52,830 nucleotides of DNA, from the NCBI GenBank assembly GCA_964490075.1, contig CAZBBK010000038.1, forward strand, positions 1 through 52,830. The letters are read 5' to 3'. Source of the DNA: an uncultured Gemmatimonadota bacterium. GTDB lineage: Bacteria > GCA-2686955. Positions 14,801 through 33,391 of this stretch are shown piece by piece. The notes beneath the pieces are model-generated. The model had not been told where the DNA came from, did no database searches, and saw nothing but the letters and a program-made list of their open reading frames with translations. How positions within the stretch are numbered: position 1 is the stretch's first letter; each line of letters begins with the position of its first letter. The position numbers were made by a program, and so were the translations under genes.

Positions 14801-15963
14801 TGCGGCGGACCAACGAGACACCGCGGAAGATGATCCGGCGCGACGGTCGGCCGTTGAAGCGACGCTTCGAAGTGATCTCTCCGGTGCATGACGGGGGCGT
14901 GGCCGCGGCAGGCGAGGCCGATCCCGTCACACCGGTGAGAACAGCGGCGATCCGTGGCCAGCTACGCTTCTGGTGGCGAGCCACCTGCGGCGTGGAGCGC
15001 GAAAGTGTCGCGGATATGCTGGCCGCGGAGACGCGGATCTGGGGCGCCGCCAGCAGCCCCGGCGCGGTCGCGCTCGCGATCACGGAACAGCCGGTCGCCA
15101 AGACGATGGAGCTGCCGGGCATCGGCGAGCCTCTCGGCTACGGCGGTTTCGGGTTGCGCACCTCGGCCGGGAAGCTCGGGATGTTCGAGGGAGAGTGCCA
15201 GCTGGTGCTGAGTGGCCCCGGGCTGGCGGACGCGGGAATCCGCGCGGAGGTGGAACGGGCGCTCGACGCGTGGTTGACTTTCGGAGGCATCGGCGGCCGC
15301 ACCCGGCGGGGTTTTGGCGCCGTCGCGTCGGCCGAGGGAGAATGCGATCCGGAAGAGACACTGAGGCGCCTGCGGCCGGGCTCGACGCTGCCCGACACGC
15401 CGAGCCTGAGTGGAGCACGGCTGGTGCTGGCGCCGGGCCGCAGCAGCACCGGGCGGGCGGCGCAGCAGAAGGCTCTGAAGCTGATGATGGACTTCCGCCA
15501 GAAGCCGGGATTGGCGCGCCGGGAAGGCGGGAAGCGCCCGGGGCGGAGCTTCTGGCCGGAAGCCGACGCCATCCGCCGCATCGCCGATAACCACAAGAAA
15601 GGACATGAGCCGGAGCACCCGGTCCACCAGAAAGCCCCCCGCGCCGAGTTCGGGCTTCCGCTCATCATCCAGTTCAAAGACAAGGACCGAGGAGATCCAC
15701 GGCAGCACGAGATCAAGCCGAAGGACTCGGAGCGGCTGGCGTCGCCGATTCTGCTTCGCCCGATCCGCATCAAGAAGAACAGCTACCGGGCGGCGGCCCT
15801 GCTCCTGGACGGCATCCGCGCCCGCGACCTCGCCCTGGAGACGAAGGGGGCGGGCCTCGAGGCCGGGCTCACGGAAGCCGAAGCCGCCCAGATCCGCCCT
15901 CTCGCCGGCAACGCCGATCCCCTGGACGCTTTCCTTGACTTCTTCTCACGTGGAGGCACTTGA
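14800..15963 (+). CDS. cmr1: Cmr1
   Basis: AIRGQLRFWWRA, FGGIGGRTRRGFG, PRAEFGLP, RLASPILLRP. Confidence 0.93.
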   Translation: MRRTNETPRKMIRRDGRPLKRRFEVISPVHDGGVAAAGEADPVTPVRTAAIRGQLRFWWRATCGVERESVADMLAAETRIWGAASSPGAVALAITEQPVAKTMELPGIGEPLGYGGFGLRTSAGKLGMFEGECQLVLSGPGLADAGIRAEVERALDAWLTFGGIGGRTRRGFGAVASAEGECDPEETLRRLRPGSTLPDTPSLSGARLVLAPGRSSTGRAAQQKALKLMMDFRQKPGLARREGGKRPGRSFWPEADAIRRIADNHKKGHEPEHPVHQKAPRAEFGLPLIIQFKDKDRGDPRQHEIKPKDSERLASPILLRPIRIKKNSYRAAALLLDGIRARDLALETKGAGLEAGLTEAEAAQIRPLAGNADPLDAFLDFFSRGGT

Positions 15964-16841
15964 TGAATCTCCGATTGATGTTCGTTCACGCCCTCTCGCC
16001 GCTGCACGCCGGAACCGGGCAGTCGGTGGGGGCCATCGATCTCGCCATCGCCAGAGATCGCGCCACCTCGTTCCCGTACCTGCCGGGCAGCTCGATCAAG
16101 GGATCGCTGCGGGATCGCGCCGGCGGCGCCAACGACGAAGTCATGGTCTTCGGTCCCCCTACGCAGAAGGCCCATGAGCACGCCGGCGCGCTGATCGTCG
16201 GCGACGCCAACCTGCTCCTTCTTCCGGTCCGGTCGGTGCGCGGAACCTACGCGTGGGCGACCTCGCCGTACCTGCTAGCTCGCTACGCTCGCGACGCCGT
16301 GGAGGCTGGCCTGAGCCCGCCCCAGGTGCCGAAGGTCGAGTCGATCGACCGGGGCCTCGTCGCCGGCGGCACTTCGTTGGCGGACAATCAAAATCGGATC
16401 ATCCTCGAAGATCTCGATTTCAAGGTCACGGCGGGCGACCAGGCAAATCAGTGGGCGGAGCACATCGCGAAGCTGCTCTTCCCCGGAAAAGCAGGAAAAG
16501 ACGATCCGTGGCCGGAGCTCTTGAAGAAACGCTTCTGCATCCTGCACGACGACACCATGGTCTTCCTGGCCCGTCATGCGACCGATGTGGTGGCGCGGAT
16601 CTCCATCGAAAACGACACCAAGACGGTCAAGAAGGGTGGGCTCTGGTATGAGGAGAGCCTGCCGGTCGAGACCATCCTGGTGGCGCTGATGGCAGCACAG
16701 GAGATCCCCGCGTCGAATGCAACCGCTACCGACGTGCTGAGGGCACTCGAGGGCTACAGCCGGGAGCCGCTGCAGCTGGGCGGAAACGCCACGGTTGGCC
16801 GGGGGCGCTGCCGCCTGGTGCTGGCGCGGGGGAACAACTGA
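15963..16841 (+). CDS. cmr4: Cmr4
   Basis: HALSPLHAGTGQSVGAIDLAIARD, PGSSIKG, GLWYEESLP, QLGGNATVGRG. Confidence 0.96.
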   Translation: MNLRLMFVHALSPLHAGTGQSVGAIDLAIARDRATSFPYLPGSSIKGSLRDRAGGANDEVMVFGPPTQKAHEHAGALIVGDANLLLLPVRSVRGTYAWATSPYLLARYARDAVEAGLSPPQVPKVESIDRGLVAGGTSLADNQNRIILEDLDFKVTAGDQANQWAEHIAKLLFPGKAGKDDPWPELLKKRFCILHDDTMVFLARHATDVVARISIENDTKTVKKGGLWYEESLPVETILVALMAAQEIPASNATATDVLRALEGYSREPLQLGGNATVGRGRCRLVLARGNN

Positions 16842-17215
16842 TGGCTACACGGCAACAACGATGGTCCAGCAAGGCGCTCGCCTGCGTCGAGGAGCGCCAG
16901 GCGGAGGGGCAAGCCAAGGACTTCGCGATCTCCAAGTACAAGACGCGCTGTCTCTCCACCCCCTCTCTCGTGCAACAGGCCGGCGTGGTTCAGGCGCTCG
17001 CCTTCATCATCTCGCGGGACCAAACCGGGCGCGACTTCGCCGACGATCTGGCCCAGACCTACGGCTTGAAGGACCGCGACGAGCTACTCAGGAAGGCCCA
17101 GAATGGTGGTCTCGGCGAGTACATGACACTGTCGGCCGACCTCATCTCGGTGGCGACATGGTTCCGGCGCTTCGCGCAATCGGAGCTCACGGCGGTCGAA
17201 GAGGACGACTCGTGA
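16841..17215 (+). CDS. cmr5: Cmr5 (small subunit)
   Basis: 124 aa helical protein between cmr4 and cmr6; TRQQRW, PSLVQQAGVVQALAF, WFRRFA. Confidence 0.9.
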   Translation: MATRQQRWSSKALACVEERQAEGQAKDFAISKYKTRCLSTPSLVQQAGVVQALAFIISRDQTGRDFADDLAQTYGLKDRDELLRKAQNGGLGEYMTLSADLISVATWFRRFAQSELTAVEEDDS

Positions 17216-18564
17216 GATCCCGCCGAAGCGCCCTGGGTGGCGTCAAACCCACGGCCGATACGCACCGCGGCCTGTGGCTCGACCGTTTCCTGACCGAGCA
17301 GAGAAACGCCGATGGCTCCTCATCCGACGACACCAAGAGCGCGCGCCAGAACCTGATCGAGAGCTGCGAGGACCACCCCGCGCCCGACGGATATGGCCAG
17401 GCGCACCGGCGCTGGAAGAGCTCTTTCGGCGACGACGCAACGCTCGCTCTGGCGACCGCGCGGGGCCGCATCGCTCTCGGCCTCGGCCAGGCCACGCCCC
17501 TGGAGGTGGGGCTGACGCTCGACCACACCTGGGGAGTGCCGAAGCTGCCCGGCACGGCCCTCAAAGGCCTCGCGGCCGCCGCCGCCCGCCATCTGCTCGG
17601 CTCTCCCGAGTGGGACGTCGGCGGCGAAAGCTACGACACCCTCTTCGGGACCACCGAACAGGCCGGAGTCGTGGACTTCATGGATGCCTGGTGGGAGCCG
17701 TCGGATGATGGGGCGAGCACCCCCATCCACCTCGACGTCATGACGGTTCATCACGGCGACTACTACGCCCGCGCCGGGAAGACCGGCGAGACGCCGCCGC
17801 CGCTCGACACCGACAAGCCCAATCCGGTCTCTTTCGCCAGCGTCAGCGGGAGCTACCTCGTGGTGGTTCGGGGACCGGCCGAATGGCGCGAGGCGGCGCT
17901 CGCCCTGCTCTGGATCGGCCTGAAAGAGCTCGGGATCGGAGCCAAGACCAACGCCGGCTACGGCCGAATGAGCCTCGATGCGAGCAACTCCTTGATCGAC
18001 GGGCTTCGCACGCAAGAGGAGCAGGCCGAAAAGCAGCGCAAGGAAGAGGAAGAAGAGCGGCGCAAACAGATCGAGGAGCAGCTCGCGGAGAAGGCCAAGA
18101 AGGCAGAAGCCGACGCCCGGGAGAGGCAGCGCATACGGGATCTTGCCAAGCTCGGGCACGAAAACTGCGGACACCTGATGCCCAGGCTCCTGGAGACCGA
18201 ATCCGAGGAGCTCAGGAAGAAGGTGCTGCTACACGCCCGGGAGCTCGGACTCGAGTTCGTGAGGGGCCGCGAAGAGAAGGGCCTGCCCTGGGCCAAGGCA
18301 GTGATGGATGCATGGCCTGAGGAGGAACGTCCCAAACCGGCCCCCGTGGATCAGGAGCTGGCGAAAGTCCAATCGGCGGGAGAAGACGCCGAAGAGCTTC
18401 GCCGGCTCAAACAGCAATGCATGGAGGCGGAGGGCTGGTCGCCGGATGCCCGGGCCGCCCTGCTGGGCGCGCTCAAGAAGAAGTTCGGAGGCCGGCGGGT
18501 GAATCCCAAGAACAAGAGGCACTATACCGAGTTCAACGACTGGTACAAGAGCCAGAAGCGGTGA
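17212..18564 (+). CDS. cmr6: Cmr6 with long charged C-terminal extension
   Basis: EVGLTLDHTWGVPKLPGTALKG, DVMTVHH..YY, GIGAKTNAGYG, followed by a ~190-aa E/K/R-rich tail. Confidence 0.92.
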   Translation: MRSRRSALGGVKPTADTHRGLWLDRFLTEQRNADGSSSDDTKSARQNLIESCEDHPAPDGYGQAHRRWKSSFGDDATLALATARGRIALGLGQATPLEVGLTLDHTWGVPKLPGTALKGLAAAAARHLLGSPEWDVGGESYDTLFGTTEQAGVVDFMDAWWEPSDDGASTPIHLDVMTVHHGDYYARAGKTGETPPPLDTDKPNPVSFASVSGSYLVVVRGPAEWREAALALLWIGLKELGIGAKTNAGYGRMSLDASNSLIDGLRTQEEQAEKQRKEEEEERRKQIEEQLAEKAKKAEADARERQRIRDLAKLGHENCGHLMPRLLETESEELRKKVLLHARELGLEFVRGREEKGLPWAKAVMDAWPEEERPKPAPVDQELAKVQSAGEDAEELRRLKQQCMEAEGWSPDARAALLGALKKKFGGRRVNPKNKRHYTEFNDWYKSQKR

Positions 18565-18653
18565 AGCTCGGCCTCGACGGGCCGGCTTGAGCAGCGCCCA
18601 ATCGCACCCACTCCCCCACACGCACACCACGCTCGAGCTACCCTGCCCCCAGG

Positions 18654-20675
18654 ATGCCCCGCCCCACCCCACCCGTCGACCCCGCCGACCTCGACCTCTA
18701 CGCCCTGCTGGATCGTGTGCTGCACGCGGTTAGCACGCCGACGAGGCTCGAGATGCTGCGCGCCGGCCAAAAGCTCGGTCTGCTGATCGAGGTCCTGCTC
18801 GGGCATCCGCCGATCCGCGGTCGCAGCCGCCCGCGCGACTTCCCTTTCGCCCCCCACCAGGACGAAGCCCTCGAGATCGCGCGCCGACTGGCGGGCCGGG
18901 AGGTCTCGAGCGACAACATCAGGCGGGGGGGGCCGAGCTACAACCTCTACGATTGGCTCGTCGCCTGCGCCCTGCTCGGCTGTGGCGACGACGACGAGAA
19001 GCGCTGCCAAGACCGGATCTTCTATCTGCTGCAGCACTTGGAGCAGACACTCGGACTGCGGCGGAGCCTGTTTCGGGAACAGATCTGGGATCTCCTCGGG
19101 CTGTTCGACGCCCCGAACAGCCGCGATCGGGGAGAGGTGTTCACCGAGACCACCAAGACCGCGGTGGTGGCGGCGCTCCTGGCGCGCCATGCCGGCTTCG
19201 ACCAGAGCAGCGATCAGCTGATCGACGAGCTCTGGGATGACAAGAAAGCACGCCGCTTCGTCCGCAATCAGCGCGACCGCCTGCGCGCGACCCGGCGTTG
19301 GCGGATCGACCTCAAGGCGGCCGGAGTCCAGGATTTCCTCGACGCATGTCGCCTGGTCTTCATTCGTCGCGGCGCCAGCACTTGGTCCGCGCAGACTCTG
19401 GCGCTGCTGCGCGACGACATCGCCTGGGGGCCGCTCGGGCACTGGCCCTTCAAGACCCGCCCCCGGCTCCTGATCGACTCCAACTCCGTGGTCAGCTTCT
19501 GGACCGAAAGCGCGGTCGCCGGCGAGGAGCTGGCGGCGGGAGTGCGCGATGCACTGGACCGAGCGCTCCAGGGATCAGAGGGCAGCGCGGTGGGGCTCGA
19601 CAAGCGATATCCACTCCTGATGCCGTACCGGCGGGAAGCCTGGGAGATGTACGAGACACATCTCGGGGCCCCCGAGCGTTGCCTTGCGGAGTTGGGCACG
19701 GTGTTTCCTGACGTGAAAGTCCAGGCCCTTCCGATGTCGTTGGAACGACTCGCGATGCAGCGAGCTCGCTACCAACCGGAATACGAGGGCCACGACAACA
19801 GCTGGCGGACGGTCCGCTGCTTCGGGGGTACCGCAAGGTCGGTCGAGAGCGGTTCGACGCCGGACTGCAAGGGAAGACCGGGCGATCCAGCCCTGGCGTC
19901 TAGAATTCCCCCCTGGTACAAACGCAATCCGAGCTCCGACGAAAGCTACGGATGGGCGGCCTTCGCCTACTCCCTGGTCGGCCGGATCTACCGCCGAACC
20001 GCCGAGCGGGGGCTCGCGAGCATCGCTTTCCCCGACCGCAAAGACGGGCGCCTGCGCGACCTCAACGCCGCGCGCCGGCTGCGGGCAATCGACCGCAAGC
20101 TGGGCGGTGAGGGGCGCCTGGCTCTTTTGAAGCTGGACGGCGATCGCGTCGGAAAGGGCTTCGTAGAAAGACCGATGCTGCGGGCGCCGGCGCTCAGTGT
20201 CGGCATCGAGTCGGTGATGCTGGAGCGAGTGCAACGAGCAGTCCACACGATCTGCGCGGAGCATCGCGCGGATCTGGAAGGAGGGCTGCCGCTCGACCTG
20301 ATCTACTTCGGCGGCGACGACCTGGAGCTGCGCGTTCCTGCGCTCCTGGTAGAGACTCTGCTCGAGGATTTCGCGACTCCACTGCCCACCGATCGCACGG
20401 CGCTCGGAGAGCTCTCGATCACCTGGTCGGCAGCCGCGATCGAGCTCGAATGCGCAACGGAACCCGGCGTACCGGCCGAGGAGATCGTGGCGGCGAGGAG
20501 AATCGGCGAGCTGCTCGAGCTGGCGAAGGCGCGCAGCCCTCTACGGGGCCGGCGGCAGGATGTGACGCCAACGATCGACGGATTGACCGGCGTGGTGGAA
20601 TGGTCGCCACGCCAACATCATGAGCGCCTCTTCGGAATGCGCGCTCGGATCGGAAAGGCGACGGCCGAACCATGA
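18654..20675 (+). CDS. Divergent Cas10-like GGDD polymerase/cyclase
   Basis: DLKAAGVQDFL...IRRGAS (Palm1-like), LALLKLDGDRVGKGF and LIYFGGDD (GGDD 20310-20321; Palm2), ITWSAAA. The N-terminal ~210 aa is unassigned. Confidence 0.75.
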   Translation: MPRPTPPVDPADLDLYALLDRVLHAVSTPTRLEMLRAGQKLGLLIEVLLGHPPIRGRSRPRDFPFAPHQDEALEIARRLAGREVSSDNIRRGGPSYNLYDWLVACALLGCGDDDEKRCQDRIFYLLQHLEQTLGLRRSLFREQIWDLLGLFDAPNSRDRGEVFTETTKTAVVAALLARHAGFDQSSDQLIDELWDDKKARRFVRNQRDRLRATRRWRIDLKAAGVQDFLDACRLVFIRRGASTWSAQTLALLRDDIAWGPLGHWPFKTRPRLLIDSNSVVSFWTESAVAGEELAAGVRDALDRALQGSEGSAVGLDKRYPLLMPYRREAWEMYETHLGAPERCLAELGTVFPDVKVQALPMSLERLAMQRARYQPEYEGHDNSWRTVRCFGGTARSVESGSTPDCKGRPGDPALASRIPPWYKRNPSSDESYGWAAFAYSLVGRIYRRTAERGLASIAFPDRKDGRLRDLNAARRLRAIDRKLGGEGRLALLKLDGDRVGKGFVERPMLRAPALSVGIESVMLERVQRAVHTICAEHRADLEGGLPLDLIYFGGDDLELRVPALLVETLLEDFATPLPTDRTALGELSITWSAAAIELECATEPGVPAEEIVAARRIGELLELAKARSPLRGRRQDVTPTIDGLTGVVEWSPRQHHERLFGMRARIGKATAEP

Positions 20676-22174
20676 AGACCGCAATGATCGTTCTAGCCAG
20701 CGAGCAGCTCTGGCCCAACCTGAGCGGGCTCGTGCACTGGCACGAAAACGAGGGCGGTGTCGACGCCCTGTTCATCTACCACACCGGCGACGAGAGACGA
20801 TCCGAGGCGCCGGCCGGGCGCCTGAAGCGGCTCTGTAGAGCGGTCTACCCGGAGATCGAGGTCATCCTGCCCGAGAAGCCGTGTGGCATCGTACCGAGCG
20901 CGGTTCGGGCGCAGATTGGGAGCTGGCGGACCGGGCGTGGCGACGAGTGGCGGTGGGTCATCAACGCGACCGGAGGTGTCAAGTTGATGTTCGAGGGCGC
21001 CATGGCGTTCTGCTCGGAGGAGCGTTGCCAGGTGATCTATCGGGAGCTTTCCGGGCAGTGGTTCGAGCTGACGCGGACCACAGAGTTAGGGCATGTCGAG
21101 GCGGTCGAGATCGAGATCGATCCTGGAGTGACTGACGACGTCGAGGTCGACAGACTGATCGAGATGCAGTCCGACGCGCCGGCAGGGATGCGGTGGAATA
21201 CGGCCAGGCCACGCCGGCTGCCGGTGGATCGCATCACCGAGACGGGCATAAGCAACGATTGGAACTGGGAGAAAGCGTTCCGGTCGGCCGGTATCGATCC
21301 CAGGGGGCGCCAGGGCGGACTGCTCTTCGAGGAGTACGTGGCTGCGGCATTGCGCCTGCTCGACGTGACCAACTGCAAGATCAACGCGGAGCTGCAGGGT
21401 GCGGTCGGCCAGGGCGCCCAGGCCGTCAGCGAGACCGACATCGTCGCCAACGCCGGCGGCCGCTTGCTGATGATCGACTGCAAGCTGCGCGAGGCCGATC
21501 AGGCCGGCGACACTCCATTGACCGATCAGATCAGCCGTGCGGCGAACTTGCAGCGTAGAATGGGCGGCTTGAGCGCGGCCTGTGCCCTGGTGCGGCCCAA
21601 TCGGGAGTTTAGCGACCTGCACCGCCGCTATGCCGAGAGCGCCAGATTGACGGTCATCGACCGCGGCCAGGCCCCGAGCTTCTTCAGCGCCTTGGCGAAG
21701 TTCGTCGGCAGGAGGAACCCCGACGATCTGCCGCCAGAGCTGGCCGACGCGCAGGCCCGCCTGAACCGTGCGCACCGAGAGGGGAAGCTGATCTTCGGAC
21801 GAATGAGCGCGGCCGCGCAGCTCGATCCGAAGCAGGCGAAGCAACTCGAGGAGGATGGGTTCCTGAACCTGATGCGCGCGGCCGATGCGACCATGGCGGA
21901 GCTCGAACAGGACTGGTTCTGCCACTCTTGGCGCGGGCGCTGGCACCTCTACTGGCAACCATCAGCGGCGGTCGATTCCAGCGATCCGCCTCGTGCGGTG
22001 TTGGAGAACATGCTCCGGAAAGAGCTGGGAAGAGCATGGGAGATCGGGGCCGAGCCCTCCAAGAAAGGCGCCTCCTGCTACGCCTCGATCATGCCGCGGC
22101 CAGGCTGCAAGGAGCCCGCTGCCGGAATCCGCCGCTTCCTCGAAAGCCGACGCGGCAAAACGCTCCTCCCCTGA
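20672..22174 (+). CDS. CARF + PD-(D/E)xK nuclease (Card1/Can2, DUF1887-like)
   Basis: CARF: IVLASEQLWPNL, INATGGVKLM. Nuclease: GLLFEEYV...ETDIV...LLMIDCK. ATGA-coupled to the upstream gene. Confidence 0.85.
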   Translation: MKTAMIVLASEQLWPNLSGLVHWHENEGGVDALFIYHTGDERRSEAPAGRLKRLCRAVYPEIEVILPEKPCGIVPSAVRAQIGSWRTGRGDEWRWVINATGGVKLMFEGAMAFCSEERCQVIYRELSGQWFELTRTTELGHVEAVEIEIDPGVTDDVEVDRLIEMQSDAPAGMRWNTARPRRLPVDRITETGISNDWNWEKAFRSAGIDPRGRQGGLLFEEYVAAALRLLDVTNCKINAELQGAVGQGAQAVSETDIVANAGGRLLMIDCKLREADQAGDTPLTDQISRAANLQRRMGGLSAACALVRPNREFSDLHRRYAESARLTVIDRGQAPSFFSALAKFVGRRNPDDLPPELADAQARLNRAHREGKLIFGRMSAAAQLDPKQAKQLEEDGFLNLMRAADATMAELEQDWFCHSWRGRWHLYWQPSAAVDSSDPPRAVLENMLRKELGRAWEIGAEPSKKGASCYASIMPRPGCKEPAAGIRRFLESRRGKTLLP

Positions 22175-22205: not shown

Positions 22206-22739
22206 TCAAGATACCGCCTCGATCACCCCCTGCGTACGCCGGCCGTCCTTCAGAAGCGCGACCCGATCCCCCGCGGCCTTGCCGGCCAGGGCCGCCCCCA
22301 GGGGGGCCGCGCGGCTCACGAACAAGACCGGACCGCGCGCTGAGTCGACCGGCTCGGAGTCGCCGACCGGCGACACGAAGTAGTGTCTCCAGATCGGCGA
22401 ACCGGCGGAGTCGCCGTCCTCCAGCGCCACGGTCACCAGCGCACCGACCTTCACGCACTCCAGCTCGCGACGTAGATTCGGCGCGCTTTCCAGGTAGTCG
22501 CGGAGCAGCGCCAGATTCTGGCGCAGCTCGGCCACGCGCCTGGCCTGTCCGGCCGCCAGATTCTGCGCCTCTTCCTTGAAGGTGTCGTAGCGGGACTGCA
22601 TCGCGCCCTTGTGCGCATTGGCGTCGCTCTGTGCGGAGCTGCGCCCCTCCTCGGCGCGCGCCAAGCGCTCCTGGTAGCGCTCGATGAAACGAGCCATCAG
22701 CTCGGGCTTGTCGACCTGTCCCCGTCTCTCGCTGCTCAT
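22206..22739 (-). CDS. GreA/GreB-family transcription elongation factor-like protein
   Basis: Coiled coil with AMQSRYDTFKEEAQNL, then VKVGALV and VSRAAPLGAALAGKAAGD (GreA/B C-terminal motif). Confidence 0.8.
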   Translation of the reverse strand: MSSERRGQVDKPELMARFIERYQERLARAEEGRSSAQSDANAHKGAMQSRYDTFKEEAQNLAAGQARRVAELRQNLALLRDYLESAPNLRRELECVKVGALVTVALEDGDSAGSPIWRHYFVSPVGDSEPVDSARGPVLFVSRAAPLGAALAGKAAGDRVALLKDGRRTQGVIEAVS

Positions 22740-22863
22740 GTCCTCGGCTCCTCGTTCAGGATGGGTTCTCCTCTCTCATGACAGGACGCCCGGCTTCCGA
22801 GGATGTGACGGTAAAGCTCCGGCCGCGCGTCACAAGGGCAAGCTCGGGTTCGTCGTTTCGGAC

Positions 22864-23487
22864 ATGAGTAGGGAAACACACGACCCGAATCGGCGCCAGG
22901 CGCCGCGCCATCCCTTCGTCGTGATCGAGGGCGTCGACGGCACCGGCAAGAGCACCGTCGCGGAGCTTCTCGCGAACGAGCTGCGCGGTATCTACTTCCG
23001 CACTCCGTCCGGACCCTACGCAACGCTGCGCCGGTTCGTGGACAAGGGCTTCGACCCGGCCATCCGCTTCCGCTTCTACCTGGAGGCGGTCGCACACGCG
23101 AGCAGCGAGATCCGCGCATTGATCGACCACCGCCCGGTGGTCTGTGATCGCTACCTGCGCTCCACCCTGGTGTACCACCGGGCCCTGGGCGCCTGCGTCG
23201 ATCTCGAGCCTGAGCTGGAAGACGCCCTGATCATGCCCGACTTCGAGTTCGTCCTCACGGCGAGCTCCGGCGTTCGGAACGAACGTCTCGCGCGGCGCGA
23301 CGACCGGGATGCATCGGACCGTCACATCGAGATGAACTCCACGTTCCTCGACCGCGCGCAAGAGGGCTTCCTCGCCGGTGAGATCGTCGCACTCGACACC
23401 AGCCGCACCGCGCCCCGAGAGCTGGTGAAGATGATGCTCGGGCAGATCCGTCAGCCTGCCTGCGCGAACGGAAGGGCGCTGCCGTGA
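22864..23487 (+). CDS. Thymidylate/CMP kinase-like P-loop nucleotide kinase
   Basis: FVVIEGVDGTGKST Walker A; VVCDRYLRSTLVYH DRY motif; PDF...L..RNERLARR. Confidence 0.88.
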   Translation: MSRETHDPNRRQAPRHPFVVIEGVDGTGKSTVAELLANELRGIYFRTPSGPYATLRRFVDKGFDPAIRFRFYLEAVAHASSEIRALIDHRPVVCDRYLRSTLVYHRALGACVDLEPELEDALIMPDFEFVLTASSGVRNERLARRDDRDASDRHIEMNSTFLDRAQEGFLAGEIVALDTSRTAPRELVKMMLGQIRQPACANGRALP

Positions 23488-24641
23488 GCGCCCGGGACCG
23501 GCCGAGACCTCTGCCGCTGCTCGATGCGCTGCACGTCGCCCGGCTCTGGGCCGCCGCCGGTGGCGCCAGAAGGGTCGAGCTCGGAGCCCTCGAGCCGCTG
23601 CTGTGGCGTGACGGCGGGCATCGTCCGGCCGACCTGGTGCGGGCGCTGCGCGACGAGAACTTCGACGTCAGCCTGACCACCAACGGAAGCCTGCTCGGAC
23701 AGCACGCGAGCGATCTGGCCGCGGCGCGACTGTCGCTGGCCCGGGTCAGCTGGCACACTTGCGACCCGGCGCTGTTCCGAGAGATCGCCGGAATCGACTG
23801 CTACGACATGTTCCGCGAGGGCATCGACGCCGCGGCCCGCGCCCGGCTGCCGATGGCATTCAACCGTGTTCTGTTTCGCGGCCACACCGATGACCTGCCG
23901 CGCCAGCTCGACTTCGTCGAAGACCAGGGCGCCCGCCTCAAACTCTACGAGCTCATGTGGACACCGGAAATCGCGCACTGCTACTCCGACATCCACCAGA
24001 GAGTGATGCCGGTGATCGACCGCCACGTCGCTCCCAGGGCGATCGCGATCGATCGCATCGAGGATTCCATCGGACGAGCACGACTTCGCTACCGGCTTCG
24101 GCGCGGCGGCAGCGTGGAGATCAAGCTCGGAAACGAGGTCGACCGCGGCGTCGCGCCCTGCTCTCGCTGTCGCTCTCGCGGCGTCTGCGAGGAGGCATTC
24201 GGCGACTACCTTCGCGTCGAGGCGAATCTCCAGGCCTTCTTCTGCTACATGCGCAGGGATATCGGCTTCGATCTGAATCGGGTGCGCGACGCCGGCGAGC
24301 TGATCACCTCCCTGCGAGCGCACTTCGGAGAGGCGACCGAAGAGCTACTGCGCGCTTCCACCCTGCGCTACATCTTGATGCCGCGCTGCAACTTCAACTG
24401 CTACCTGCCCGGCACCAACCGCTCCTGGTGCCACAAGAGGGACGGCAACTACCGGTGGCCGCGGCGCGATGTGGCGGCCGCGCGGGTGCCGGTCGCGCAG
24501 GCCGCGACAGCTTTCCAACACGATCGTCAGGCCTCCTCCTCCTCGTCGATCGTCTCGCGAATGGCCTTGAGGCCACGGAAAACGTCCTGGCGGATGCCCG
24601 CCTCCTTGATCTTCCGTTCCCGCGGATCGGCGCCGAGATAG
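23484..24641 (+). CDS. MoaA-like radical SAM protein, apparently circularly permuted
   Basis: GALEPLL (GGEPLL variant), SLTTNGSLL, Cys cluster CSRCRSRGVCEE...FCYMRRD. The only CxxxC..C motif (LRYILMPRCNFNCYLPGTNRSWCH) lies near the C-terminus. GTG overlaps the kinase stop. Confidence 0.75.
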   Translation: MSARDRPRPLPLLDALHVARLWAAAGGARRVELGALEPLLWRDGGHRPADLVRALRDENFDVSLTTNGSLLGQHASDLAAARLSLARVSWHTCDPALFREIAGIDCYDMFREGIDAAARARLPMAFNRVLFRGHTDDLPRQLDFVEDQGARLKLYELMWTPEIAHCYSDIHQRVMPVIDRHVAPRAIAIDRIEDSIGRARLRYRLRRGGSVEIKLGNEVDRGVAPCSRCRSRGVCEEAFGDYLRVEANLQAFFCYMRRDIGFDLNRVRDAGELITSLRAHFGEATEELLRASTLRYILMPRCNFNCYLPGTNRSWCHKRDGNYRWPRRDVAAARVPVAQAATAFQHDRQASSSSSIVSRMALRPRKTSWRMPASLIFRSRGSAPR

Positions 24642-25246
24642 TCATCACCGTGCAGGACGGCCGCAACCTCCGCCGCGCTAAGATCTTGGAGATGAAAGAG
24701 CAACACTGTGTTCAGCTGCCGCCTGGCCACCTCGCCACGCCGCGCGAGCCTCGCCATCTCCCGCACGACACACGCCATCGAGGCGGAGGCCTCCAGTTGG
24801 CGCGCGACCTGCTCGTCCAGCAGCGAGCTCGGATCGATCAGCGTGTGGAAGGTCTGATGCTCCCCGTCGTCCTCTCCGTCCGGGCCATCGATCGATACCA
24901 AGCGAATGCGCGTCGGATCCTCGCCGGTCTCCAGCACTCTCCGGAGTCCGCGGAGATAGTCGGCCCGCACGCTCTTGCAGATCTTCTTCAGCCACGCGTA
25001 GAGCTCCCTCGGGGTCCGTGCGCGAAGGTCCGCCGCATAGCGAACGATCCTCTGCCACGCGTTCTGCACCAGGTCCTCGTGAATCCTCGCGCGCTCTTCG
25101 ACCGGTCCCAGGTACACCCACGCACGCATCTGCGGGCTCACCGCATCGTGAAACATCGAGGCCCCCACCGCGTCCTGACCCGACTCGATATTCGCCACGA
25201 ACCGGTGGAAGAGATCCAGAGTCGACACATCCTTGCCCATCGCCAC
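24527..25246 (-). CDS. ECF-type sigma-70 factor-like protein
   Basis: EDLVQNAWQRI and YAWLKKICKSVRADYLR (region 2); LHLQDLSAAEVAAVL and RGLKAIRE (region 4 HTH). Confidence 0.7.
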   Translation of the reverse strand: MAMGKDVSTLDLFHRFVANIESGQDAVGASMFHDAVSPQMRAWVYLGPVEERARIHEDLVQNAWQRIVRYAADLRARTPRELYAWLKKICKSVRADYLRGLRRVLETGEDPTRIRLVSIDGPDGEDDGEHQTFHTLIDPSSLLDEQVARQLEASASMACVVREMARLARRGEVARRQLNTVLLFHLQDLSAAEVAAVLHGDDYLGADPRERKIKEAGIRQDVFRGLKAIRETIDEEEEA

Positions 25247-25970: not shown

Positions 25971-27893
25971 TCACCCCCCACCCGGCTCCCCCCGCTCCAC
26001 CGCCCGCCGCGCCGTGCGCACGTTGCGGCTGTAGTCGACGTTGGTCGGCTCCAGGCGCAGCGCGGCCTGGAAGTGCTCGAGCGCCTGGTCGGGGCGGCCC
26101 AGCCGTGCCAGGGCGACGCCGGCGCCGTTGTGGGCGATGGAGTCGCCGGGATCGAGTCGGGCGGCGCGCTGAAAGTACATCGCCGCCGCGGCGAAACGCC
26201 GCTGCTCCAGGAGTGCTTCGGCGAGCGCTCGCTGCGACTCGGCGCGCATGAAGCCCAGCTCGGCCGCGCGGTCGAGCAGCTCCGCGGCCTCGTCGACCGC
26301 CCCGCGCAGGGCCAGGATGGCGCCCAGGTTGAGCAGGATCTGTGGGCCGTCGGGGACCAGGGCGCGGGCGGAGCGCAGGGTCTCGATCGCCGCCTCGACT
26401 TGGTGGTTCTGGTAGTAGGCGATGCCCAGGTTGACCAGGGCGGGCACGTAGTCCGGCGAATGCTCGAGGCTGGCCCGGTAGTGCCCGATCGCCTGTTCCA
26501 GGTCGCCGCGGCGCGCGCTCACCAGACCGAGGTTGTTCCAGGCCTCGTAGTAGTCGGGCTTGATCGTGAGCGCGGTCTCGAAGTGTTGCTGGGCGGCGCC
26601 GAGGTCGCCGCGCCGGGTCTCGATCAAACCCAGCTCGCTGTGCGCGGCGAAGGCCCGAGGATTGCGCGTCAGAGTCGCTCGCCACAAGGTTTCGGCATCG
26701 GTGTAGTCGTGGGCCTGGCGCCAAGTCAGGAGCGCGGCCAGGGCGAGCGGTCCGGCCCAGGCGAGGGCGCGCCATGGGGAAGCGCGAAACCCTGTCGTCA
26801 AGAGCGCCGCCAATGGCACCAACACTCCGATGCTGGCCAGGTACTGAAAGTGGTCGGCCACGAACGCGAAGCGCATCGGGTAGAAGCTGACGAAGCCGAG
26901 CGCCGGGAAGAGGGTGCCGGCGAAGAAGAGCAGGGCCGCCAAGGGACCGCGGCCGAGCCGCCGCCGCGCCCCCCACAGCGCCGCCGTCAGCGCGACGAAC
27001 GCGGTCGGGTACAGGTACTGCGACCAGGCGCCGGCGTCGATCGGCCAGAGCGGATAGAAGAAGGTCAAATCGCTCGGCACCACGAGCTTGCCGGCGTAGA
27101 ACCAGAGCGCCCGACCGGCGATCAGGACGCGCTCGGCGAAGCTGAAGCTCCAGGCCGCCCCCTCGGCGCCGACGTGCTGCTGCTCGAGCCCCGCGGTCGC
27201 CAATCCGGCGGCCGCGCCGAGCGCCAGGAGCGGCGCCAGCCGCGCCACATCACCCCGGCCGATCCGCCCCTTCCGCCACCACAGCCCCACCGCCACCGCC
27301 GCCGGAAAGGAGGCCGTCACCGACTTGCTGAGCAGCGCGCAGCCGAAGAGTGCCGCCGCCGCTGCGTACAGCAGCCATCGGTTCGCCGGGCGCGTCCCCG
27401 GCTCCCCCCCCGCAGACTTCGCTCCAAAACCCTCGAAACGGCAGTAGCACAACGCAGCCACCAGATAGCACAGTCCCGACAACACGTTCTTGCGCTCGGT
27501 GATCCACGCCACCGACTCCACGTGCACCGGATGCACCGCGAAGAGCGCGGCCGCCAGCCAGGCCCCCGGCGTCCCCAGCCGCCGCAGCACCCGCCACAGC
27601 ACCAGCGCCGCCCCCGCGTGCAGCAAGACGTTCACCACGTGGTAGCCGGCCGGATCCTCCCCCCACAACCGTCGCTCCAACCAGAACGAGGTGAAGACCA
27701 GGGGGTAGTACTGGGGCGAGGCCTTCCGGTCGAGCCAGATCGCCCGCAGCCCGCCCGGCTCGGTCAGAGTCGGATTCTCGGTCAGGTAGGAATCGTCGTC
27801 CCAGATGGTGCCGGCGCCGACCGCCGGCCAGTAGACCGCCAGCGTCAGCGCCACCAGCGCCAGGGCCGGAACGACTCGCCGCGCAATCGCCAA
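25971..27893 (-). CDS. Multi-TM glycosyltransferase-like (TMTC-like) protein with C-terminal TPRs
   Basis: IWDDDSY, YYPL, FAVHPVHVESVAWITERKNVLS, VADHFQYLAS, TPR repeats. TTG start uncertain. Confidence 0.88.
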   Translation of the reverse strand: MAIARRVVPALALVALTLAVYWPAVGAGTIWDDDSYLTENPTLTEPGGLRAIWLDRKASPQYYPLVFTSFWLERRLWGEDPAGYHVVNVLLHAGAALVLWRVLRRLGTPGAWLAAALFAVHPVHVESVAWITERKNVLSGLCYLVAALCYCRFEGFGAKSAGGEPGTRPANRWLLYAAAAALFGCALLSKSVTASFPAAVAVGLWWRKGRIGRGDVARLAPLLALGAAAGLATAGLEQQHVGAEGAAWSFSFAERVLIAGRALWFYAGKLVVPSDLTFFYPLWPIDAGAWSQYLYPTAFVALTAALWGARRRLGRGPLAALLFFAGTLFPALGFVSFYPMRFAFVADHFQYLASIGVLVPLAALLTTGFRASPWRALAWAGPLALAALLTWRQAHDYTDAETLWRATLTRNPRAFAAHSELGLIETRRGDLGAAQQHFETALTIKPDYYEAWNNLGLVSARRGDLEQAIGHYRASLEHSPDYVPALVNLGIAYYQNHQVEAAIETLRSARALVPDGPQILLNLGAILALRGAVDEAAELLDRAAELGFMRAESQRALAEALLEQRRFAAAAMYFQRAARLDPGDSIAHNGAGVALARLGRPDQALEHFQAALRLEPTNVDYSRNVRTARRAVERGEPGGG

Positions 27894-28110
27894 CGATCGC
27901 CCCTTTCGCGATGGTTCCGGGCGTCCTCCGATCCCGGATCGACGCCTCGACGCGGCACGATAACACGGCGTCCCGCCCTCCCATCCCCAACCGCGCCCGA
28001 CCGATCTGATACCCTGCTGCGCCCTCCTCACGTCCCGAGGAGATCTCGGCGCACCACGCTTCGACCACTCGAAGCGCGGCGCGGCTCACGACGACTACCA
28101 GGAGAATCTG

Positions 28111-28650
28111 ATGACCAAGTTGTTCTCGACCCTCGCGTGCGCAGCTCTCGCTGCGGCTGCCGCTTCGCCTGCTCCCGCCCAGATGTCGTTTGGACTGGGC
28201 TCCGTCTCCGCGGGCCTGGCGCTCGTGTCGCCCGAGGATATCGATGGCACCTTCGGCATCACGCTGGGCGCCGAGGTCGGCACCATCCTGGAGAATCTCG
28301 ATGCCCGCGCCGACCTGATCTGGTGGAGCACCAGCGAGGGCACGACGGGGGCCTAGGCGTCGTTCCGCGACATCGGCATTCTGCCCGGCGTCCGCTATCA
28401 CTTCTCCATGGGCGAAGACGTGCCCATCACGCCTTTCGCCGACGGCGGTCTCGGCATCCACCTGTTCAAGGCCGAGGTCGATACCTTTCTGGGGTCGGTC
28501 AGCGACACCACGACCGAGATCGGGATCTTCTTCGGTGGAGGCGCCGCTTACGAGATCAGCGACACGATGACCCTGGCCGGCATCGCCCGGTTCAACCTCA
28601 TGGACGTCAACTTCATCACGTTCGGCGCCGAGATCTCCATCGATCTGTAA
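28111..28650 (+). pseudogene. Outer-membrane beta-barrel (porin-like) protein interrupted by in-frame TAG
   Basis: Signal peptide and alternating beta strands. ORFs 28111-28356 and 28408-28650 are in the same frame, split by TAG 28354-28356; the intervening codons read ASFRDIGILPGVRYHFS. Confidence 0.75.
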
Positions 28651-28666
28651 AGGGCGCGTGCGACCC

Positions 28667-29170
28667 ATGGGAGCGGTGATCCGCGAGCTCGGACCGGACG
28701 ACGATCTGGAAGCCCTCACCGAGCTGCTGCACCGCGCCTACGCCGGTCTGGCGCGCCGGAACCTGCTTTACGTCGCTACCCACCAGAGCGTCGCCGTCAC
28801 CCGCAGCCGGATCTCCAAGGGCACCTGCTTCGTCGCCGAGCTCGACGGCCGCCTCGCCGGCACGCTGACCTACGTCGACCCCGCGCGCACTGCCGGCTGC
28901 GAGGTCTACGACCGCCCCGGAGTCGCCAGCTTCCACCAGTTCGGGGTCGAGCCGGCCTTGCAGGGCCGCGGTATCGGCGACCTCCTCCTGGCGCGCGCCG
29001 GGCAGGCCGCGCGCGCCGACGGTGCCCGCGCCCTGGCCCTCGACACCGCCGAGCCCGCCCGCCAACTGATCGCCATGTATCGGCGCCGCGGCTACCGCGT
29101 CGAAGGGCATGCGGACTGGCCGGAGACCAACTACCGCAGTGTCATCATGGTGCGCTCGCTGGAGCCATAG
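28667..29170 (+). CDS. GNAT family N-acetyltransferase
   Basis: FGVEPALQGRGIG acetyl-CoA motif; LDTAEPA...YRRRGY. Confidence 0.92.
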   Translation: MGAVIRELGPDDDLEALTELLHRAYAGLARRNLLYVATHQSVAVTRSRISKGTCFVAELDGRLAGTLTYVDPARTAGCEVYDRPGVASFHQFGVEPALQGRGIGDLLLARAGQAARADGARALALDTAEPARQLIAMYRRRGYRVEGHADWPETNYRSVIMVRSLEP

Positions 29171-29318
29171 ACGCCCAGGTCATCCGCGACGCCGCGTCAT
29201 CCCTTACGATGAGCCTGAGCCCCCGCGGCCAAGACGACCCCGGAAGACCCAAGAGCACGCGGCATTCTCTGCTTACGATGTAGGTACCGGTTCCCCGCAC
29301 CCCACTCCCGGAGGCAGC

Positions 29319-32087
29319 ATGAAGCTCCGTTCCGCCCTGCCCTGCGCCCTTCTTCTCCTCTCCGTCCTCCTCGCGCCCCGCGTCGCGCACGCCGGCGCCC
29401 TCGATCCCGATCTGGAGATGCGCCTTCGAGCCGCGTCGCCGAGCACCGAGTTCCGCGTGATCGCGATGCTCGAGGACCGCCCCGACGTCACGACCCAGGC
29501 CCGGCGCCTCTACCGCGAGGGCTGGGACCCGGCCGCGCGCCACGAACAGGTGGTGCGCACCCTGCAGCGAGCCGCCGCTCGCTCCCAGGGCCCCCTGCTG
29601 CGCCGGCTGCACGAGAGCAAGAGGCGCGGCGCGGTGAGCGCGATCACGCCGCTGTGGATCGTCAACGCCGTCGCCTTCGAGGGATTGCCGGGCGCCATTC
29701 GAGCCGCCTCACGCGCGGCCGGCGTCGACCAGATCGTCGAGGATTCGCCGATCGCCCTGGAGGAGCCGGTCGAGATGCAGCCCGACGCGCCGCGCGTCCA
29801 GTCCCACGAGTGGGGGCTCGACATGATCCGCGCCCCCGAGGTCTGGGCGCTGGGCTACTTCGGTGCCGGCCGGGTGGTCTGCAACCTCGACACCGGTGTG
29901 GAGGGCGACCATCCGGCCCTGGCCGACAAGTGGCGCGGCGTCGATGGGGGGGATTGGCGCCATCACTGGTTCGATCCCAGCACCGGCTCCAGCTTCCCGA
30001 TCGACGACAGCTACCACGGCACCCACACCATGGGAACCATGGTCGCCGCCGAAGTCGGCGACACGGTCGGCGTCGCACCCGGCGCCCAGTGGATCGCCGC
30101 CCTCACCATCGGCGGGTCCGGCGACTTCGTCTCCAAGTCGCTGCAGGCCTTCGAGTGGGCCACCGATCCCGACGGCGACCCCGGCACCCCCGACTATCCG
30201 GACGTGATCAGCAACTCCTGGACCGACCTGCAGCCCCGGTGCCTGTCCACCTTCCACCAGGCGATCGACAACGCCGAGGCGGCCGGGGCGGCGGTGGTGT
30301 TCAGCGCCGGCAACTCCGGCCCCGGATCGGAGAGCATCACCTCCCCGAAGAACCGCGCCACCACCCCGGTCAACATCTTCGCCACCGGCGCTCTGCAGAG
30401 CAACGAGCAGATCGCGTCGTTCTCCTCGCGCGGCCCTTCTTACTGCGACCACGTGACGATCAAGCCGGAGGCGACCGCCCCCGGCGACGACGTGCGCTCG
30501 ACCATGCCCTCCGGCTACGGACTGCTCTCGGGAACCTCGATGGCCGCTCCGCACGTGGCGGGAGCCGTGGCGATCTTGAAGGAGGTCAATCCCTCCCTCG
30601 ACCCCGAGACCGTCAAGACGATTCTGATCGAAACCGCACGCGACGCCGGCAGCCCGGGAGAAGACAACACTTACGGCAACGGCATCATCGATCTGTACGA
30701 GGCCTTTCTGGCCGCCGCGACCGGCTACGGCACCCTGGCCGGCCAAGTGCAGGACGCTGCCAGCGGGGCTCCCCTGTCGGCCGCGATCGAGGTGGTCGGC
30801 ACTCCGCGCCGCACCCGCGCCGGTGAAGACGGGCTGTTCATCCTGCCGCTTCCCGCCGACTCCACCTTCGACATTGTCGCCACCTACTTCGGCTACCTGC
30901 CGGCCGAGTTTCAGGTCGAGCTCGCCCCCGGCGACACTCTGCGGAAGCTCGTCGCGATGGACGCGGCCGCCACCGGCGGCATCGCCGGCATCGTGCGCGA
31001 CGAAGGCGCGGTGCCGGTAGTGGGCGCCGAGGTCGCGCTGCTCGATACGCCTCTGCCGAGCGTCTACACCGACGCCTTCGGGGCCTTCACGATCGACGCC
31101 GCGCCGGCCGACTCCACCTACCGTCTCGGCGCCGAGGCATGCGGGCTGCTGCCCGGAGGCCGCCTGGTCACGGTGCTGGCCGGGCAGGTCGCCGACGGCG
31201 ACCTGACGCTGAGCGAGCTGAGCGCCGACGACATGGAATCGGGCGAGAACGGCTGGACCCACGCCGCGGTCACACCGGGCTACCTCGACGAATGGCACCT
31301 GTCGCAGCAACGCAACCACACTCCCGGTGGCGACACTTCGTGGAAATGTGGCGACACCGGTTTCGGCGACTACGAGGATCTGGTCGACGCCGGCCTGGTG
31401 ACGCACTGTCTCGACCTGCGTCCGGGCAGCACGCTGCGTTTCTGGCACTGGATCGACGCGGAGATCGAGACCGCCACCGAGGCCTGGGACGGCGGAATCG
31501 TCGAGATCTCGAGCGACGGCGAGAGCTTCGATCAGATCACGCCCGAGGGCGGCTACCCCTACACCATCGTCGACAACCCAGCCTCGCCCTTCGAGCCGGG
31601 CACACCCTGCTTCAGCGGCAGTCACGACTGGCGGCAGGAGTCCTTCGATCTTTCCGCCTACGCCGGCGAGGCCTATGTGCGTTTCCGCTTCGGCACCGAC
31701 GGCTACGTGACCGAGGAGGGCTGGTACATCGACGACCTGACGCTCGACAGCGACCGCCCCGACGTCTCGATCGCCGTGCTCGGAGCGCCGGCCACGGTAT
31801 CTCCCGGAGAGCTCGCCGAGTGGGATCTGACCGTCTCCAACAACACAGCACTGCCCCAGACCGTCGACGTCTGGCTGCATATCGACGGCAATGGCGTCGA
31901 AGGGGCGCGAGTGCTGGTCAGCGACATCACGCTGCTCGCGGGCCAGTCGGGCACGCGCGGCGTGCGGCTGCTGGTGCCGCCGATCACGCCCGAGGGTGTC
32001 TACACGGTCGAGAGCACCGTCGGGATCTTCCCCGATGAGCCCTACGATCTCGACCGACGCACGGTGGAGGTGACGGCTGGCCGCTGA
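29319..32087 (+). CDS. Secreted S8 subtilase (bacillopeptidase F-like) with C-terminal beta-sandwich domains
   Basis: Signal peptide; catalytic triad LDTG, HGTHTMG, GTSMAAPHVAG. Confidence 0.95.
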   Translation: MKLRSALPCALLLLSVLLAPRVAHAGALDPDLEMRLRAASPSTEFRVIAMLEDRPDVTTQARRLYREGWDPAARHEQVVRTLQRAAARSQGPLLRRLHESKRRGAVSAITPLWIVNAVAFEGLPGAIRAASRAAGVDQIVEDSPIALEEPVEMQPDAPRVQSHEWGLDMIRAPEVWALGYFGAGRVVCNLDTGVEGDHPALADKWRGVDGGDWRHHWFDPSTGSSFPIDDSYHGTHTMGTMVAAEVGDTVGVAPGAQWIAALTIGGSGDFVSKSLQAFEWATDPDGDPGTPDYPDVISNSWTDLQPRCLSTFHQAIDNAEAAGAAVVFSAGNSGPGSESITSPKNRATTPVNIFATGALQSNEQIASFSSRGPSYCDHVTIKPEATAPGDDVRSTMPSGYGLLSGTSMAAPHVAGAVAILKEVNPSLDPETVKTILIETARDAGSPGEDNTYGNGIIDLYEAFLAAATGYGTLAGQVQDAASGAPLSAAIEVVGTPRRTRAGEDGLFILPLPADSTFDIVATYFGYLPAEFQVELAPGDTLRKLVAMDAAATGGIAGIVRDEGAVPVVGAEVALLDTPLPSVYTDAFGAFTIDAAPADSTYRLGAEACGLLPGGRLVTVLAGQVADGDLTLSELSADDMESGENGWTHAAVTPGYLDEWHLSQQRNHTPGGDTSWKCGDTGFGDYEDLVDAGLVTHCLDLRPGSTLRFWHWIDAEIETATEAWDGGIVEISSDGESFDQITPEGGYPYTIVDNPASPFEPGTPCFSGSHDWRQESFDLSAYAGEAYVRFRFGTDGYVTEEGWYIDDLTLDSDRPDVSIAVLGAPATVSPGELAEWDLTVSNNTALPQTVDVWLHIDGNGVEGARVLVSDITLLAGQSGTRGVRLLVPPITPEGVYTVESTVGIFPDEPYDLDRRTVEVTAGR

Positions 32088-32164
32088 GGGTCCGCGCCGG
32101 CGTGCATTTCGCGGCCGACCGCGGAGAAGTCGACTTCACTCCGATCGCCCACACGGAGAGCACC

Positions 32165-32644: not shown

Positions 32645-32667
32645 GTCTCCTAAGGAGCCCAGAAATC

Positions 32668-33335: not shown

Positions 33336-33391
33336 CTTTGATGTCCACTTCCCGGTAGACAGGTTCGAGGGGGGCGGCGATCGTGGAGGGC

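Follow-up and report, generated by a model that had tools for sequence, protein, structure and literature searches.

Evidence for a natural circular permutation in a MoaA-like radical SAM enzyme encoded beside a kinase and a Gre-like factor

The usual mark by which radical S-adenosylmethionine (SAM) enzymes are identified and annotated is a CX3CX2C motif at the N-terminus. Here we describe an open reading frame (ORF) that very likely encodes a natural circular permutant of a MoaA-like radical SAM enzyme, in which the segment with the Cys motif stands at the C-terminus. The ORF lies on contig CAZBBK010000038.1 of GenBank assembly GCA_964490075.1, from an uncultured Gemmatimonadota bacterium, and the whole stretch of 52,830 nucleotides that was analysed is called the window in the following (coordinates in Table 1). 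On the combined evidence of sequence, fold and gene neighbourhood, it is probable that the protein is an intact permuted enzyme of the MoaA/viperin branch, which may act on a nucleotide within an accessory module directed at transcription.

The preliminary description of this DNA had proposed that the protein starts at the segment that follows the cluster motif in MoaA-like enzymes, runs through TTNGSLL and an auxiliary Cys cluster, and shows a C-x3-C-x9-C motif only near its C-terminus. It had read this as a natural circular permutation with an expanded cluster loop, which standard profile models would miss or mislabel. At the level of the ORF these elements were all found. Residues 9-40 read PLPLLDALHVARLWAAAGGARRVELGALEPLL and include GALEP (residues 34-38), the equivalent of the GGE motif, which hhalign aligned to GGEP. 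TTNGSLL occupies residues 65-71, with TTNG at 65-68, and the region of C226, C229, C235 and C254 was aligned by hhalign with the CxxC...C region of MoaA-like proteins. The beta1 strand and Cys motif LRYILMPRCNFNCYLPGTNRSWC, with C302, C306 and C316, are located near the C-terminus (residues 294-317, LRYILMPRCNFNCYLPGTNRSWCH), and a codon check confirmed TGC codons at 24387, 24399 and 24429. In the proposed architecture the chain would start at helix alpha1, which follows the cluster loop in ordinary enzymes, continue through the rest of the partial TIM barrel (GALEP, TTNG) and the auxiliary four-Cys region, cross back via helix 270-291 and end in beta1 and the C302-x3-C306-x9-C316 loop. This loop would bind the SAM-cleaving [4Fe-4S] cluster, and the four auxiliary Cys would bind a second cluster.

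The same arrangement might in principle come from an N-terminally truncated MoaA gene in decay, or be an artefact of assembly or of a frameshift, the Cys-rich tail being there by chance. Such an origin would agree with the missing N-terminal motif and with the last ~55 residues (after ~330), which are unconserved among homologues and overlap a convergent sigma-like ORF. The conserved part, however, has the codon-position GC of a typical coding region (0.69/0.49/0.85), and the match in the genome itself covers 23505-24476 (E 1.3e-141), conservation stopping near 24476 (residue 331). A contig that stems from another sample of this study contains an identical sequence over the junction of linker and motif (24248-24523). 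The stretch 22206-24641 is contained in four DNA runs, all from one study, and no RNA run is listed for it. An upstream frameshift concealing an N-terminal motif was examined and discarded: no N-terminal Cys motif was found in any frame upstream of the ORF. The upstream DNA codes for a kinase whose stop overlaps the GTG start by 4 nt (GTGA). Given also that the genome has a canonical MoaA elsewhere and that 55 homologues from independent assemblies share start, segment order and invariant motif, we assign next to no probability to decay or artefact.

These homologues were obtained by a search over 5.8 billion proteins, which gave 63 matches: the window's own protein, 55 homologues (P0003-P0057; E <= 3.4e-54, 40-54% identity, 282-357 aa) and 7 ordinary MoaA-like proteins (E >= 3.1e-9). 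Those close homologues that are complete share their starting point with the window protein and carry the motif at their end (P0055-P0057 are either fragments or proteins whose N-terminus is unrelated), so that a normal N-terminal motif merely deleted in the window, which the preliminary description had named as a possible refutation, is not what the family shows. The C-terminal motif is present in 55/55 homologues. Its conservation had been set beforehand as a test, and in alignment A2 (54 rows, 40-53% identity to the query) the motif was invariant in 54/54 sequences. The invariant positions comprise L294, C302, N303, N305, C306, P309, W315 and C316 as well as the four auxiliary C226, C229, C235 and C254. 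The permuted family probably corresponds to the top cluster of the ESM Atlas, which has a score of 0.98 and 142 members. The cluster at rank 3 contains 50 radical SAM proteins of ~274 aa, all from Uroviricota viruses (feature score 0.95), the similarity being one of features only.

Profile models recognise the protein in part, in the way that the preliminary description had foreseen. PF04055 scored 46.5 bits (gathering score 29.5), with residues 4-137 matching profile positions 22-157 of 166; because the match is confined to these positions, the segment of the model with CxxxCxxC is unmatched at the N-terminus. Similarly, in the archaeal MoaA model residues 25-229 correspond to positions 54-254 of 303, and the NCBIfam MoaA models match from their positions 49-55 onward. 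All three MoaA models remained far under their cut-offs (TIGR02666, 83.8 vs 325.25; TIGR02668, 69.5 vs 231; NF001199, 58.5 vs 284.05), as did the viperin model NF038283 (18.2 bits vs 180). No dedicated model for the permuted family was found in NCBIfam and Pfam. Among the 13 family members that were named in their source, 12 go under the name of MoaA, of cyclic pyranopterin phosphate synthase or of a molybdenum cofactor biosynthesis protein; the permuted family is mislabelled in databases.

The two pieces of the chain could both be aligned to MoaA, and in swapped order. With HMMER, the A1 profile against Staphylococcus aureus MoaA placed profile positions 291-305 on MoaA 15-29 (LRLSVTDRCNFRC) and positions 3-154 on MoaA 47-197. 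Profile-profile comparison with hhalign gave the same picture. Against 66 canonical MoaA-like proteins, Q6-286 of A2 corresponds to T43-309 (probability 100) and Q295-323 to T14-35 (probability 80.9, E 1.3e-5), the latter with a single 7-residue gap between Cys2 and the aromatic residue-Cys pair. Against 14 relatives of normal segment order with a long loop, described below, Q7-271 corresponds to T57-319 (probability 100) and Q296-323 to T24-51, in 28 gapless columns (probability 94.9, E 4.5e-8). At the residue level, R295 is matched to MoaA R17, which belongs to the three Arg that the title of entry 2fb2 names, and R244 to an Arg of the CxxCxRxR region of MoaA-like proteins (hhalign).

To the alignments a structural model was added, which AlphaFold2 built from A2 and a query shortened to 337 aa. 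The model reached a predicted local distance difference test score (pLDDT) of 88.7 and a predicted template modelling score of 0.88. Its best Foldseek match is MoaA 1tv7 (E 2e-11). In VIA-align the superposition on MoaA had a Z of 19.9 and a root mean square deviation of 3.5 over 261 aligned residues, with model residues 1-284 corresponding to MoaA 39-312, from which it follows that the model begins where the MoaA cluster loop ends. At least 40 other radical SAM structures match at Z > 10, and viperin structures at Z 13.8-15.8. The linker helix 270-291 is modelled with pLDDT blocks of 95 and 90 and residues 291-310 with 93 and 88; DSSP assigns a paired strand at 293-296, and the sequential aligners stop at 284-291. 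In the proposed fold, the beta1 strand would take its place in the barrel and C302, C306 and C316 would converge.

It could be argued that the fold is permuted and the C-terminal Cys triad holds a structural metal or some other cluster, so that the protein is not a working radical SAM enzyme. The non-canonical CX3CX9C spacing and the presence of four further invariant Cys would suit this explanation. On the other hand, the GGE-equivalent and TTNG motifs are retained, as is the aromatic residue before the third Cys (W315, invariant); 5 permuted relatives carry a canonical CX3CX2C at the equivalent C-terminal site, and normal-order relatives have the long loop exactly at the position of the SAM-cluster loop. 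We therefore regard a triad that does not bind the SAM-cleaving cluster as improbable. Altered Cys spacing or placement with a SAM cluster still bound is known from QueE (CX14CX2C), HmdB (CX5CX2C) and ThiC (C-terminal CX2CX4C). There the expansion lies between Cys1 and Cys2, or the cluster is held on a separate domain, whereas the window enzyme carries its insertion between Cys2 and Cys3, and its entire beta1-loop is found at the opposite end of the same domain.

To follow the origin of the swapped order, a profile search of 1.84 billion representatives was used, which returned 5951 proteins at E <= 0.001; the number falls to 882 for E <= 1e-10 and to 57 for E <= 1e-30. Segment order and loop type were assigned for 167 of 213 proteins, leaving aside P0002, P0056, P0057 and lengths below 290 or above 420 aa, with P0108 assigned by eye. 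The permuted order was found with the long loop in 78 of the 167 and with a canonical C-terminal CX3CX2C in 5 (P0106, P0108, P0112, P0115, P0123). Normal order occurred with CX3CX2C in 66 and with an N-terminal long loop CX3CX8-14C (CNFxCxFPxxxxWCH) in 14 (P0098, P0102, P0104, P0110, P0111, P0113, P0114, P0117, P0120-P0122, P0125, P0131, P0180), while 4/167 were motif-less. The 14 share with the permuted family the expanded loop, the auxiliary Cys pattern and the LKLY..W motif, which bears out the expanded cluster loop of the preliminary description as something that exists in the ordinary N-terminal position as well. They differ in their normal segment order and in four short loci, which were found in a metagenome scan with a 4-row alignment (A6) and carry neither a thymidylate-kinase-like gene nor a Gre-like factor. 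At one of these (L031:859-2916) the radical SAM gene stands beside HEPN (RiboL-PSP) and EVE-domain genes.

A tree was calculated from 233 core columns without the motif (careful IQ-TREE, 87 rows), comprising 39 of the 78 permuted proteins with a long loop, the complete sets of 5 permuted canonical and 14 normal-order long-loop proteins, and 29 of the 66 canonical ones. All 44 permuted rows were found on one side of a branch with an ultrafast bootstrap of 96 and an SH-like approximate likelihood ratio test value (SH-aLRT) of 87, and the permuted and long-loop rows together split from the canonical rows at 99/94, in a tree whose bootstrap is not fully settled and in which long branches are flagged (P0093, P0130 and others). 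The normal-order long-loop relatives are the sister group or groups of the permuted clade. A single change of order was needed in 94% of 200 bootstrap trees. Since all 44 permuted proteins fall into a single clade, they are likely to go back to one permutation event. When the tree is rooted on the canonical rows, the simplest history would begin with an expansion of the loop in normal-order ancestors, followed by one permutation and then by a loss of the insertion in one permuted sub-branch, which would have returned to CX3CX2C. Fused or tandem-duplicated intermediates of 626-2000 aa were not found at E <= 1e-10, which is weak evidence. Altogether, the swapped-order homology, the family-wide order and the single clade uphold the circular permutation that had been proposed.

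The closest characterised likeness of the window enzyme is to MoaA (1tv7, 2fb2, 2fb3), with which it shares the partial TIM barrel, the GGE-type and TTNG motifs, a C-terminal Cys-rich auxiliary region and the LR...CNFxC beta1-loop. In line with this, one could suppose that the protein is permuted and still isofunctional, i.e. a GTP 3',8-cyclase of molybdenum cofactor synthesis: its best sequence and fold matches are MoaA, and R295 is aligned with MoaA R17. Yet it differs from MoaA in segment order, in CX3CX9C vs CX3CX2C, in the four auxiliary Cys that are invariant in its own family, and in its gene neighbours. Its scores lie far under the MoaA cut-offs, PF06463 (Mob_synth_C) was unmatched in the ORF at E up to 1, and a terminal GG is lacking in the permuted family, whereas the 7 canonical matches all carry PF06463 and end in GG. 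The neighbours are a kinase, a Gre-like factor and, at many other loci, a CYTH protein, and no molybdenum cofactor gene is present among the 25 commonest flank families. The host genome (5.7 Mb, 95% complete) encodes a canonical MoaA with Mob_synth_C on another contig (C1), so the ORF is not the housekeeping MoaA of this genome.

The distribution of the family also argues against a housekeeping role in cofactor synthesis. The permuted gene is rare and patchy: at E <= 1e-30 the family was not found in any of 60 other relatives searched, including three of the same family, nor was it found in any of 400 other sampled genomes of the phylum of a carrier genome (G061). A pattern scan with one genome per species gave 26 loci, most of them in Patescibacteria lineages and the others in Acidobacteria, Solibacteraceae, Myxococcota and one gammaproteobacterial metagenome-assembled genome. 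Isofunctionality with MoaA thus appears very improbable.

Insight into the substrate of the enzyme can be gained from the genes around it. ORF clustering over 27 loci (the 26 and the window), several of which end at contig edges, defined a cassette: a thymidylate-kinase-like protein of ~188 aa lies directly upstream in 23/27 loci, usually overlapping the start of the radical SAM gene, a Gre-like protein of ~162 aa occurs in 24/27, and a CYTH protein of ~192 aa, mostly convergent downstream, in 21/27. Pfam confirmed GreA_GreB, Thymidylate_kin and CYTH in the cassette. The usual order is Gre, kinase, radical SAM and then CYTH on the opposite strand; in two loci (L001 and L003) it is kinase, radical SAM, Gre, and in the window the Gre-like gene is divergent. 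CYTH was not found at the loci of the window, L001, L003 and L019. PHROGs gave no match for the radical SAM, Gre-like or CYTH proteins, and no PADLOC model matched the latter two. One Paceibacterota locus has a second, more divergent CYTH upstream of the cassette (L011:5671-6213, minus strand), besides the usual downstream one.

In the case of the kinase, the overlap of 4 nt described above implies translational coupling to the radical SAM gene. Its PADLOC matches are PDC-M51B (3.6e-30) and VakA, the viperin-associated kinase (4.8e-16). The probable start is the ATG at 22864, because the 60-residue N-terminal extension is without counterpart and the homologues begin near window residue 75. With this start, the divergent intergenic region towards the Gre-like gene measures ~125 nt. 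In two short loci of the normal-order relatives (L032:2248-4132 and L033:962-2846) a PfkB-family kinase gene overlaps the start of the long-loop radical SAM gene, and the coupling to a kinase may predate the permutation.

In the case of the Gre-like factor, the profile (A4) matched Gfh1 (2e-8), GreA (9e-7) and GreB (1e-3) in the PDB over profile positions 55-161, and PF01272 was found with E 7.6e-9 in the copy of locus L005. The window protein has the C-terminal domain of GreA/GreB and an N-terminal coiled coil of matching length, and is counted as Gre/Gfh1-like on this basis. In the family the tip residues G45, S49, D52 and T53 are invariant.

Several lines point to a nucleotide as substrate, which we would put at about an even chance. 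Firstly, the nearest solved relatives (MoaA, AbmM, BlsE and viperin) act on nucleotides or nucleosides. Secondly, R295 and R244 are aligned with MoaA R17 and with an Arg of CxxCxRxR, respectively. Thirdly, a kinase is translationally coupled to the radical SAM gene both here and in the sister group. The prokaryotic viperins (pVip) offer a parallel, as radical SAM proteins of the same structural neighbourhood that are paired with a nucleotide kinase, the window kinase itself matching VakA; the window enzyme, in contrast, is not a viperin by sequence, is permuted, and has an auxiliary Cys cluster and a linkage to a Gre-like factor. The conserved Gre-like partner suggests RNA polymerase as target or beneficiary. 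The radical SAM enzyme would act on a nucleotide supplied by the coupled TMPK/Vak-like kinase, and the compound that it makes would affect transcription jointly with the Gre-like factor. The genes would thereby form a rare and mobile accessory module, probably one of conflict or defence. This nucleotide-modifying role directed at transcription is thus a prediction from the gene neighbourhood, and a defence role of the cassette in particular appears doubtful.

Some of our results weigh against this picture of an intact enzyme in an accessory module. The short HMMER piece 291-305 is weak when taken alone (i-Evalue 2.8e+02), and we know of no characterised precedent for a nine-residue Cys2-Cys3 spacing. 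The sole PADLOC match of the radical SAM protein is a weak one to pVip (E 4.4e-5 over 65 residues). Viral contigs gave 4 pattern matches, none of them a relative. Finally, the 118 flanking ORFs of the 25 other loci are mostly of housekeeping type (SSB, S6, EF-P, histidine kinases), vary by locus and show no enrichment of defence genes.

The housekeeping flanks in other genomes and the failure to find the family in viral contigs would fit a physiological regulator instead of a defence system. Its product, a modified nucleotide or a ligand of the alarmone type, would work jointly with the Gre-like factor on the RNA polymerase of the cell itself, like DksA/ppGpp. The Gre/Gfh1-like factor, conserved in 24/27 loci and with an invariant tip motif, would fit this as well. 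However, the family occurs very rarely and in phyla that are far apart, an unusual pattern for a core regulator, the kinase most resembles defence-associated kinases, the cassette adjoins CRISPR in the window genome, and copies at two loci appear to be decaying. At one of these (L013:7992-8999) the radical SAM gene is split into two ORFs (170 + 161 aa); at the other (L025:7308-9445) both the kinase gene and the CYTH gene are broken in two, the radical SAM protein is called as a 161-aa piece only, and both loci look like decaying cassettes. We therefore see the regulator as a possibility to be kept in mind, tentative rather than favoured, next to the accessory module that we prefer.

A bolder version of the accessory module holds that the cassette is a new nucleotide-based conflict system against RNA polymerase and that no natural permutation has been described before in the radical SAM superfamily; as a whole we consider this rather unlikely. 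The kinase would supply a nucleoside di- or triphosphate, which the radical SAM enzyme would convert to a chain terminator or a ligand of the secondary channel. Two roles would be open to the dedicated Gre-like factor and its SRYDT tip, which is invariant: to take the analogue off the end of the transcript and so rescue the polymerase of the host, or to bring the analogue into the channel. CYTH, where present, would trim or cyclise the triphosphate.

If the permuted architecture is accepted, a cluster-binding beta1-loop can relocate to the opposite terminus and accept an insertion of seven residues after Cys2 and before Cys3 under strong selection. Because recognition of radical SAM enzymes relies on the N-terminal CX3CX2C, motif-based surveys miss the permuted ones. 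The occurrence of both segment orders, together with the permuted canonical-loop forms, offers a natural series on the tolerance of the barrel to permutation in a metallo-enzyme, and the linkage of a radical SAM enzyme with a viperin-type kinase, CYTH and a Gre-like factor is a testable lead to new nucleotide chemistry on transcription. In the open-access literature no description of a permuted radical SAM enzyme or of the cassette was found, nor was there one among the papers listed for radical SAM together with Gre factors or the secondary channel; an earlier description in subscription journals or supplements is possible. The accessible part of the report on the Ophion radical SAM defence system (10.1101/2025.09.30.679545) names different partners (PHP, PRTase) and does not mention permutation. 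In the accessible parts of PMC10332631 and PMC1282579, circular permutation concerns a lipoate ligase and methyltransferases, respectively, and not radical SAM.

In the window, the cassette follows a type III-B (Cmr) CRISPR-Cas locus (11352-22174). As the flanks of the other loci show no enrichment of defence genes, this adjacency is a single case. Within the CRISPR-Cas locus, a 673-aa ORF (18654-20675) has only a weak match to the Cas10 palm2 domain (E 0.0024) and may be a second, divergent cyclase-like protein.

Table 1. Coordinates of the radical SAM gene, its parts and its neighbours in the window.
Feature	Position	Strand	Basis
Cas10/Cmr2	11352-13718		
Cmr3	13106-14800		
Three RAMP genes	14734-18564		
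CARF-PDDEXK/Card1-like nuclease, directly upstream of the cassette	20672-22174		
Gre/Gfh1-like secondary-channel factor, 177 aa, tip motif GxMxSRYDTFKEE	22206..22739	-	conservation, PDB profile matches, PF01272
Thymidylate-kinase (TMPK)-like nucleoside monophosphate kinase	22684..23487	+	PF02223 E 2e-16; PADLOC
Permuted MoaA-like radical SAM ORF (very likely), 385 aa, GTG start	23484..24641	+	homologues, invariance in A2, own-genome match
Radical SAM core without beta1, residues 1-225, begins at helix alpha1	23484..24158	+	PF04055, hhalign, VIA
Auxiliary Cys cluster region, C226, C229, C235, C254	24159..24245	+	invariance in A2, hhalign, codons
Long linker helix, residues 270-291, from former C-terminal domain to former N-terminal strand	24291..24356	+	DSSP on AlphaFold2 model
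Relocated beta1 and cluster loop, residues 293-316, LRYILMPR-C302-NFN-C306-YLPGTNRSW-C316 (CX3CX9C)	24360..24431	+	HMMER, hhalign, invariance, DSSP

On the other side of the cassette, an ORF resembling extracytoplasmic function sigma factors (24527-25246, minus strand; Sigma70_r2 E 3.8e-5) is convergent with the unconserved tail of the radical SAM ORF, the overlap being 115 nt, and shows a weak match to the type III-E CRISPR-associated sigma model. It is followed by a TPR protein (25971-28031, minus strand), a large S8 peptidase (29109-32087) and an Ada-type regulator/methyltransferase with the domains Ada_Zn_binding, HTH_18 and DNA_binding_1 (33383-34537). These genes, from 25971 to 34537, are ordinary and mark the end of the defence-like stretch.

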